7,641 nt of DNA, taken from NCBI RefSeq assembly GCF_003334255.1, contig NZ_QOWU01000095.1. One strand, given 5' to 3'. A program made the translations under genes and the position numbers. Under the pieces are notes generated by a model. The model made no database searches. It was not told the DNA's origin and saw nothing but the letters and a program-made list of their open reading frames with translations. Source of the DNA: Escherichia coli. Lineage in GTDB: Bacteria; Pseudomonadota; Gammaproteobacteria; Enterobacterales; Enterobacteriaceae. This document shows positions 5,226 through 5,399 of the stretch, in pieces (the stretch's first letter is position 1; each line of letters starts with the position of its first letter).

Positions 5226-5399
5226 TTTTTAAAGTGAATTTTGTGATGCGGTGAATGCGGCTAAGCGCACGCGGAACAGTTAAAACCAAAAACAGTGTTA
5301 TGGGTGGATTCTCTGTATCCGGCGTTAATTGTTAACTGGTTAACGTCACCTGGAGGCACCAGGCACCGCATCACAAAACTCATTGTTGAGGGCGCGATA

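Follow-up and report, generated by a model that had tools for sequence, protein, structure and literature searches.

DicF and DicB, both encoded by prophages, inhibit the division of the host cell. In the window considered here (the whole stretch of 7,641 nucleotides of Escherichia coli DNA that was analysed), the gene of the small RNA DicF is separated from dicB by a spacer bracketed by a long-range inverted repeat, which raises the question of what this repeat does in the transcript. The initial annotation proposed that it forms a duplex which is either a substrate of RNase III or a structure that couples the maturation of DicF to the translation of dicB.

The window belongs to a lambdoid prophage of E. 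coli, of which it covers the immunity and early-left region. Positions 5100–5620 are 100% identical to strain EBJ003, where the gene order is LexA-family repressor, ydfA, ydfB, ydfC, dicF (unannotated), dicB, a DUF1482 gene (ydfD-like), an exonuclease gene and an integrase gene next to tRNA-Ser. A match to 5100–5620 was found in 4652 of 5426 complete E. coli genomes. The copy in the Qin prophage of K-12 is 99% identical over the 481-nt aligned stretch that covers DicF and the spacer, and K-12 (MG1655) coordinates are converted to those of the window by subtracting 1644209. The coordinates of the features are given in Table 1.

The prophage of the window is nevertheless different from Qin and apparently more complete, with a LexA-type repressor instead of DicA. 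This repressor (3368–4006, 212 aa) has a DicA-like helix-turn-helix N-terminus and a C-terminus of the LexA/UmuD self-cleaving type, whereas DicA from K-12 is reported to have no cleavage site. The dicBF operon of this prophage is therefore probably SOS-inducible.

Table 1. Positions of the features of the dicF–dicB region, in the numbering of the window
Feature	Positions	Strand	Basis or remarks
Upstream imperfect stem	4963–5048	+	core repeat 4971–4983 with 5029–5041
DicF sRNA, 53-nt form	5173–5225	+	Rfam RF00039 at 5174–5225; K-12 dicF annotation 1649382–1649434 maps to 5173–5225
U-run of the DicF intrinsic terminator	5226–5230	+	read from the sequence
5′ arm of the closing stem	5233–5253	+	core 5239–5253; outer 5 bp (5233–5237) past A5238·C5379
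Putative RNase III cut in the 5′ arm, 3′ end of 71–72-nt DicF	5243–5245	+	arithmetic; the 2-nt-overhang partner of 5375 would be a cut at 5243/5244
Structured core, divergent relative of STnc100	5254–5363	+	hairpins 5257–5272, 5273–5320 (variable), 5321–5347 and 5349–5363
3′ arm of the closing stem	5364–5384	+	perfect core 5364–5378
Processing site in the 3′ arm	5375–5376	+	Term-seq 3′ end at 5375
dicB Shine-Dalgarno GAGGG	5388–5392	+	from the sequence (GAGG 5388–5391), 8 nt 5′ of the ATG at 5400
dicB CDS, 62 aa	5400–5588	+	NCBIfam NF049927 DicB, 134.3 bits; RefSeq annotation of an identical locus

The match of the window to the Rfam DicF family RF00039 is full length (5174–5225) and scores 76.7 bits, compared to a gathering threshold of 48, so that the RNA belongs to this family. 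Rho-independent termination has been described at the 3′ end of DicF (PMC5069750). Because the U-run of this terminator precedes both arms of the repeat, the stem can only form in transcripts that read through it. DicF ends at 5225 and the perfect part of the 5′ arm starts at 5239, which confirms the 14-nt gap of the initial annotation. On the other side, the distance of about 20 nt announced between the repeat and the ribosome-binding site is only roughly right: the perfect 3′ arm stops 9 nt short of the Shine-Dalgarno sequence and 21 nt short of the ATG.

The perfect inverted repeat of 15 nt is exact as first described: TTTTGTGATGCGGTG (5239–5253) is the reverse complement of CACCGCATCACAAAA (5364–5378), with a spacer of 110 nt. 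A repeat finder lengthens the arms to 19 nt at 95% complementarity (5235–5253 and 5364–5382). When G·U pairs are allowed, the helix 5233–5253/5364–5384 has 21 positions, 20 of which are paired (two as G·U), and a single mismatch, A5238·C5379. The perfect repeat is the longest of the window for spacers of at most 200 nt, the runner-up being 11 nt long, and a repeat of at least 15 nt is obtained in 2 of 500 dinucleotide-preserving shuffles of the window.

The minimum-free-energy folds of 5170–5420 (the calculation suggested with the initial annotation, z = −5.7) and of 5230–5390 (z = −5.4) both close the stem, and none of the shuffled sequences folded as well. RNase III accommodates about 22 bp of helix, or roughly two turns, and the 21-position stem with its perfect 15-bp run is of this kind. 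It has no character of a Rho-independent terminator: 110 nt separate the two arms, the sequence after the 3′ arm is CUCAUUGUUGAG, and the terminator scan does not flag the stem. The same scan found no terminator inside the spacer on the + strand.

Relatives were gathered from IMG/VR with the motif TCACCNGGAGGCACCNGGCACC, and from one genome per species with TGAATGCGGCTNNGCGCNCGNG. The alignment contains 31 distinct operon-embedded copies, from E. coli, E. albertii, Citrobacter braakii, Klebsiella spallanzanii, K. pneumoniae, a Klebsiella phage and Buttiauxella gaviniae. From this alignment, RNAalifold again predicts the stem. Over the 21 named pairs and the 31 copies, 96.3% of the cells are standard pairs, and changes on both sides occur in 12 of the 21 pairs. 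None of 500 shuffles matches these values, and sliding the partner by 1–3 columns lowers the pairing to 35–50%. The arms from Klebsiella (ACCTTGCAATGC and GCATTGCAAGGT) and from Buttiauxella (ACTTTGCAGTGT and ACACCGCAAAGT) are quite unlike those of E. coli in sequence and still build the long stem, with 14–17 bp.

G·U pairs are common in the alignment (for example, the pair 5239/5378 is U·G in 11 of the 31 copies). A G·U pair becomes a C·A mismatch on the opposite strand, and the constraint therefore acts on the + strand transcript. The helix is thus conserved, with compensatory changes, as a + strand RNA, beyond what is expected by chance. Comparative proof of this kind places the predicted helix under selection in several enterobacterial genera.

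In two IMG/VR sequences, e095 and e096 (L103 and L105), the 5′ arm of the E. coli type is joined to the 3′ arm of another variant, and the stem has mismatches. This suggests recombination within the conserved core, which would be a mosaic joint between phage modules.

The proposal that the stem is a substrate of RNase III is supported by this conserved helix of about two turns and by three published sets of data, all obtained with the K-12 allele. The 1990 work of Faubladier, Cam and Bouché, as it is cited in later papers (PMC5069750, PMC9438474, PMC2777011), described an RNase III site of the Qin dicBF operon at the same locus and position. According to Balasubramanian 2016 (PMC5069750) and a 2022 review (PMC9438474), which both cite this work, RNase III produces a 72-nt DicF from the full-length transcript. 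Counting 72 nt from the 5′ end at 5173, a length taken from these later accounts, puts the 3′ end of this RNA near 5244, halfway along the 5′ arm of what is the same stem.

On the other side of the helix, the Term-seq data of Adams 2021 (PMC7815308, supplementary files 1 and 3) include an "orphan" 3′ end at MG1655 1649584 (+), 25 nt 5′ of the dicB start, in LB at OD 0.4 and in M63, with the Rho score "No". This position is 5375 in the window, inside the 3′ arm, and there is no U-run. With an RNA 3′ end at 5375, the dicB mRNA would therefore begin at 5376 and have a leader of 24 nt. The end at 5375 could also result from another nuclease or from exonuclease trimming. No 3′ end was found near 1649453, where the 72-nt DicF would end, among the Term-seq ends in the interval 1649400–1649499. 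The third data set is that of Gordon 2017 (PMC5371410, Table S1), which places at 1649470 a site that depends on rnc, named "intergenic dicF-dicB" and flagged as known, with 0 reads in the wild type and 26 in the rnc mutant. It maps to 5261, just within the stem, a position which is only approximate with this method and relies on 26 reads.

Since 5244 pairs with 5373, the ends at 5244 and 5375 face one another across the helix, staggered by 3 nt (by 2 nt if the long DicF has 71 nt); the end at 5244 is deduced from the published length, as later papers give it, and that at 5375 comes from Term-seq, in separate studies of the K-12 allele. Both sit at the centre of the helix of about 21 bp. The rules established in vivo by Altuvia 2018 are a valley of about 22 bp, 2-nt overhangs and a G-C pair lying between the two cut positions; the distance was 2 in 85 targets and 3 in 15 (15/103). 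Here, the pairs between the two putative cuts are G5243-C5374 and U5242-A5375 (plus U5244-A5373), so that the interval is paired and includes a G-C.

For the K-12 allele, which is nearly identical, others have thus shown RNase III-dependent processing in the spacer and a 3′ end at 5375. By arithmetic and independent K-12 data, the stem is very probably the downstream RNase III site of the dicBF operon which has already been mapped. The alleles differ at three positions of the stem, and all three differences keep or improve the pairing in K-12: two G-C pairs of the window are G·U in K-12, and the A·C mismatch of the window is A-U. The K-12 allele, which provided all the processing data, therefore has 21 contiguous pairs where that of the window carries a mismatch.

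A separate RNase III-dependent cut, upstream of DicF, generates the 5′ end of a 190-nt species, and it is the only RNase III cut named in the paper from the Vanderpool laboratory (PMC10448788). If the 190-nt species ends at the DicF terminator, it starts at about 5036–5041, in the 3′ arm of the imperfect upstream stem (4963–5048), which is the probable site of this other cut and hence of the 5′ end of the 190-nt precursor of DicF. At position 4981 in this stem, a C-to-T change in K-12 retains the pairing as G·U. Closer to DicF, the Term-seq data of Adams 2021 include a strong "orphan" 3′ end at 5159–5160 (K-12 1649368/9), 13–14 nt 5′ of DicF, under each of the three growth conditions. One possible origin of this end is trimming of the RNA left upstream when RNase E cuts to make DicF.

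The explanation that we hold with good confidence is that the two arms are the base helix of a structured RNA, present in the early-left transcript when it is extended by read-through, and that RNase III cleaves this helix on its two strands, about halfway along. When the polymerase reads past the DicF terminator in the ydfA-ydfB-ydfC-dicF-dicB-ydfD transcript, the helix 5233–5253/5364–5384 would form, and RNase III would cut near its middle, at about 5243–5244 and at 5375. Three products are expected: an upstream piece that would end in a 3′-extended DicF of 71–72 nt, an excised core of about 130 nt which would resemble STnc100 and keep a residual closing stem of 9 bp, as in free-standing STnc100, and a dicB-ydfD mRNA that would have a 24-nt leader with a 5′-monophosphate. 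We infer both the origin of the two ends, as paired cuts made in the stem by RNase III in one event, and the fate of the three products.

The spacer enclosed by the stem is not featureless. In a permissive Rfam scan, 5237–5377 resembles RF02076 (STnc100), with 38.8 bits and E = 2.3e-7, which is under the gathering threshold of 47. The match covers positions 21–154 of the 206 of the model, including the consensus closing stem, and nothing past 154. Like the related PasD (bioRxiv 10.64898/2026.05.13.724894), STnc100 is a prophage sRNA that associates with Hfq. The core has near-invariant ends, a variable middle and covarying hairpins. It shows the architecture of the 5′ domain of RF02076 and its motifs, GGTGAAT and TCACCNGGAGGCACCNGGCACC, the latter being found exactly in more than 100 phage copies. 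In RNA terms, the features shared with STnc100 and PasD are a closing stem, GGUGAAU, a first hairpin, a variable arm, a further hairpin and UCACCNGGAGGCACCNGGCACC.

The core also differs from STnc100 and PasD. Bona fide STnc100 copies in the collected loci score 81–132 bits (132 for L015 and 81 for L021, both called at threshold), whereas at the gathering threshold RF02076 is called neither in the window nor in the K-12, Rac-type, P7 and Klebsiella copies. The sequence of the first hairpin is not the same. No sigma-70-like promoter was found on the + strand in 4900–5600. With neither a promoter of its own nor the tail at model positions 155–206 that includes the terminator, the core is not a free-standing member of the family: it is embedded in an operon, 14 nt past DicF. 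In comparison, a promoter of the form TTGAC-N17–19-TANNNT lies immediately 5′ of 20 of 68 free-standing STnc100 copies. A tRNA-like nature of the core was considered and dropped: the terminal hairpin abuts the stem like a T arm, but it has a 5-nt loop, AGGCA, and the core is matched by no tRNA model.

The length of the closing stem sets the two classes apart. It has 4–9 contiguous bp in all but one of the 68 free-standing copies scored, a class in which the pairing weakens past pair 7, and about 21 bp in the window. A closing stem of at least 20 bp, with one irregularity allowed, is present in 36 of the 43 unique IMG/VR copies of the operon-embedded type. The long helix is therefore an addition specific to the operon-embedded copies, which fits the recruitment of RNase III.

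The core is found in other contexts. In Rac-type prophages it precedes kilR, and elsewhere a rha/isrK/C4 module, in both cases with a DicF-like terminator and the same 5′ arm. It occurs without the long stem in the ban operon of P7, near tRNA genes in phage D6 and in a P1-like plasmid, and right after tRNA genes in Pantoea and Buttiauxella. It is annotated in none of the records examined for the core-type loci (L002, L003, L004, L005, L006, L140, L167, L174 and L178). In Rac-type prophages (L002, about 1450–1500; in IMG/VR, for example, L014, L023 and L043), the DicF-like terminator hairpin GGCGGCATCAG...CTGATGTCCGCCCTTTTT has a 5′ part unlike that of DicF and is followed by the same stem-and-core module. 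These hairpins may be paralogues of DicF with other targets.

STnc100 and its relatives often adjoin phage tRNA genes (L015, 3210–3725; L003 and L005). In the Pantoea and Buttiauxella loci (L131, L134, L136, L163, L173, L177 and L182), they lie within about 15 nt of the apparent 3′ end of the tRNA, with a conserved lead-in AGTGCTCT...GTTGT.

These relatives bear on another reading of the helix, namely that it serves above all to close an STnc100-like domain, where it would hold a multi-helix junction together for a function such as the binding of Hfq or of another factor, and that its cleavage by RNase III is incidental or minor. A closing stem is indeed found beside GGUGAAU...CACC in the Rfam consensus of STnc100 and in all the 111 unique relatives examined, the inner hairpins covary, and the core is kept where dicF and dicB are absent, as in the P7 ban operon and the tRNA-linked copies. 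However, 4–9 bp suffice in the free-standing members; the extension to about 21 bp exists only in operon-embedded copies and therefore points to an added function that requires two helical turns, and the K-12 data put an RNA end inside this extension. We regard a mainly architectural role as unlikely, and it is compatible with the explanation based on RNase III rather than exclusive of it. The repeat could also be fortuitous, or a palindrome that acts in DNA, for instance in protein binding or recombination, and plays no part as RNA. Lambdoid phages swap modules at conserved non-coding joints, and e095 and e096 have arms of mixed types. Against this, the length of 15 nt is rarely reached in the shuffled windows, the compensatory changes and the strand-specific G·U pairs favour RNA, and the 110-nt spacer also folds and covaries as RNA. 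The covariation effectively refutes this interpretation, whose probability is negligible.

The last alternative concerns the coupling to dicB suggested in the initial annotation: the stem would hinder the access of ribosomes to dicB, and cleavage by RNase III would relieve this effect, as in the N leader of phage lambda, where processing by RNase III stimulates the synthesis of N. The extended 3′ arm ends just 3 nt before the Shine-Dalgarno sequence, and in one fold the latter pairs with the tail of the DicF terminator, a pairing that is weakened in K-12 by a G-to-A change. Yet the cost of opening 5386–5413, calculated from ensemble free energies, is alike before and after processing: 11.3 kcal/mol in the RNA from DicF to dicB and 11.2 in the RNA that starts at 5376. 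In K-12, the values are 7.9 (unprocessed) and 9.8 (processed), so there is no consistent difference across the alleles. In the unprocessed folds, the Shine-Dalgarno sequence lies within a small local hairpin, which still covers it after cleavage. Folding calculations thus lend no support to the masking of the dicB ribosome site, which we consider very improbable; an effect of the stem on dicB through mRNA stability is possible. A duplex between the 5′ region of DicF and the start of dicB was also rejected: at −15.2 kcal/mol, it is equalled by 18% of the shuffles.

The proposed cleavage by RNase III has parallels in other phages. Phage lambda has RNase III sites in its early-left region, in the N leader and at sib, the site of retroregulation of int. 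In lambda, the long early-left stem is complete only in read-through transcripts; it is cut by the RNase III of the host, and this alters the fate of the flanking RNA. The situation in the window is similar, with a long early-left stem in read-through RNA as a target of host RNase III, but there is no sequence kinship, and the upstream product is here an sRNA, and the int mRNA in lambda. In the early transcript of phage T7, host RNase III separates the units at conserved intercistronic stems. The polycistronic phage transcript is likewise split at a conserved stem in the case of dicBF. The T7 sites are, however, compact hairpins with internal loops, often cut on a single strand, whereas the helix described here closes a 110-nt domain with several hairpins and both arms appear to be cut.

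In essence, the stem was already known: its analysis re-identifies a processing site known since 1990, and the novelty of the stem is therefore low. What goes beyond is the placement of the two putative cuts at the nucleotide level, the comparative evidence for the helix across several enterobacterial genera, the lack of support from folding for the masking of the dicB ribosome site, and the recognition that the "spacer" is a relative of the widespread STnc100/PasD family of phage RNAs, for which this link offers a tractable locus in K-12. The way in which DicF and DicB are each released from one transcript determines the timing of host filamentation.

The relationship of the core to STnc100 also raises a more tentative idea, that of a release cassette: RNase III would excise the STnc100-like domain of about 130 nt (about 5244–5375) as a discrete, stable RNA. 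We consider this rather doubtful at present, but the release of a second sRNA by RNase III is the most interesting possibility that remains. If it were true, many prophage operons of the dicBF type would encode a second, unrecognised sRNA, as would the modules located before kilR, before rha and in P1-like phages, and this second sRNA would be made only upon read-through of the DicF-type terminator.
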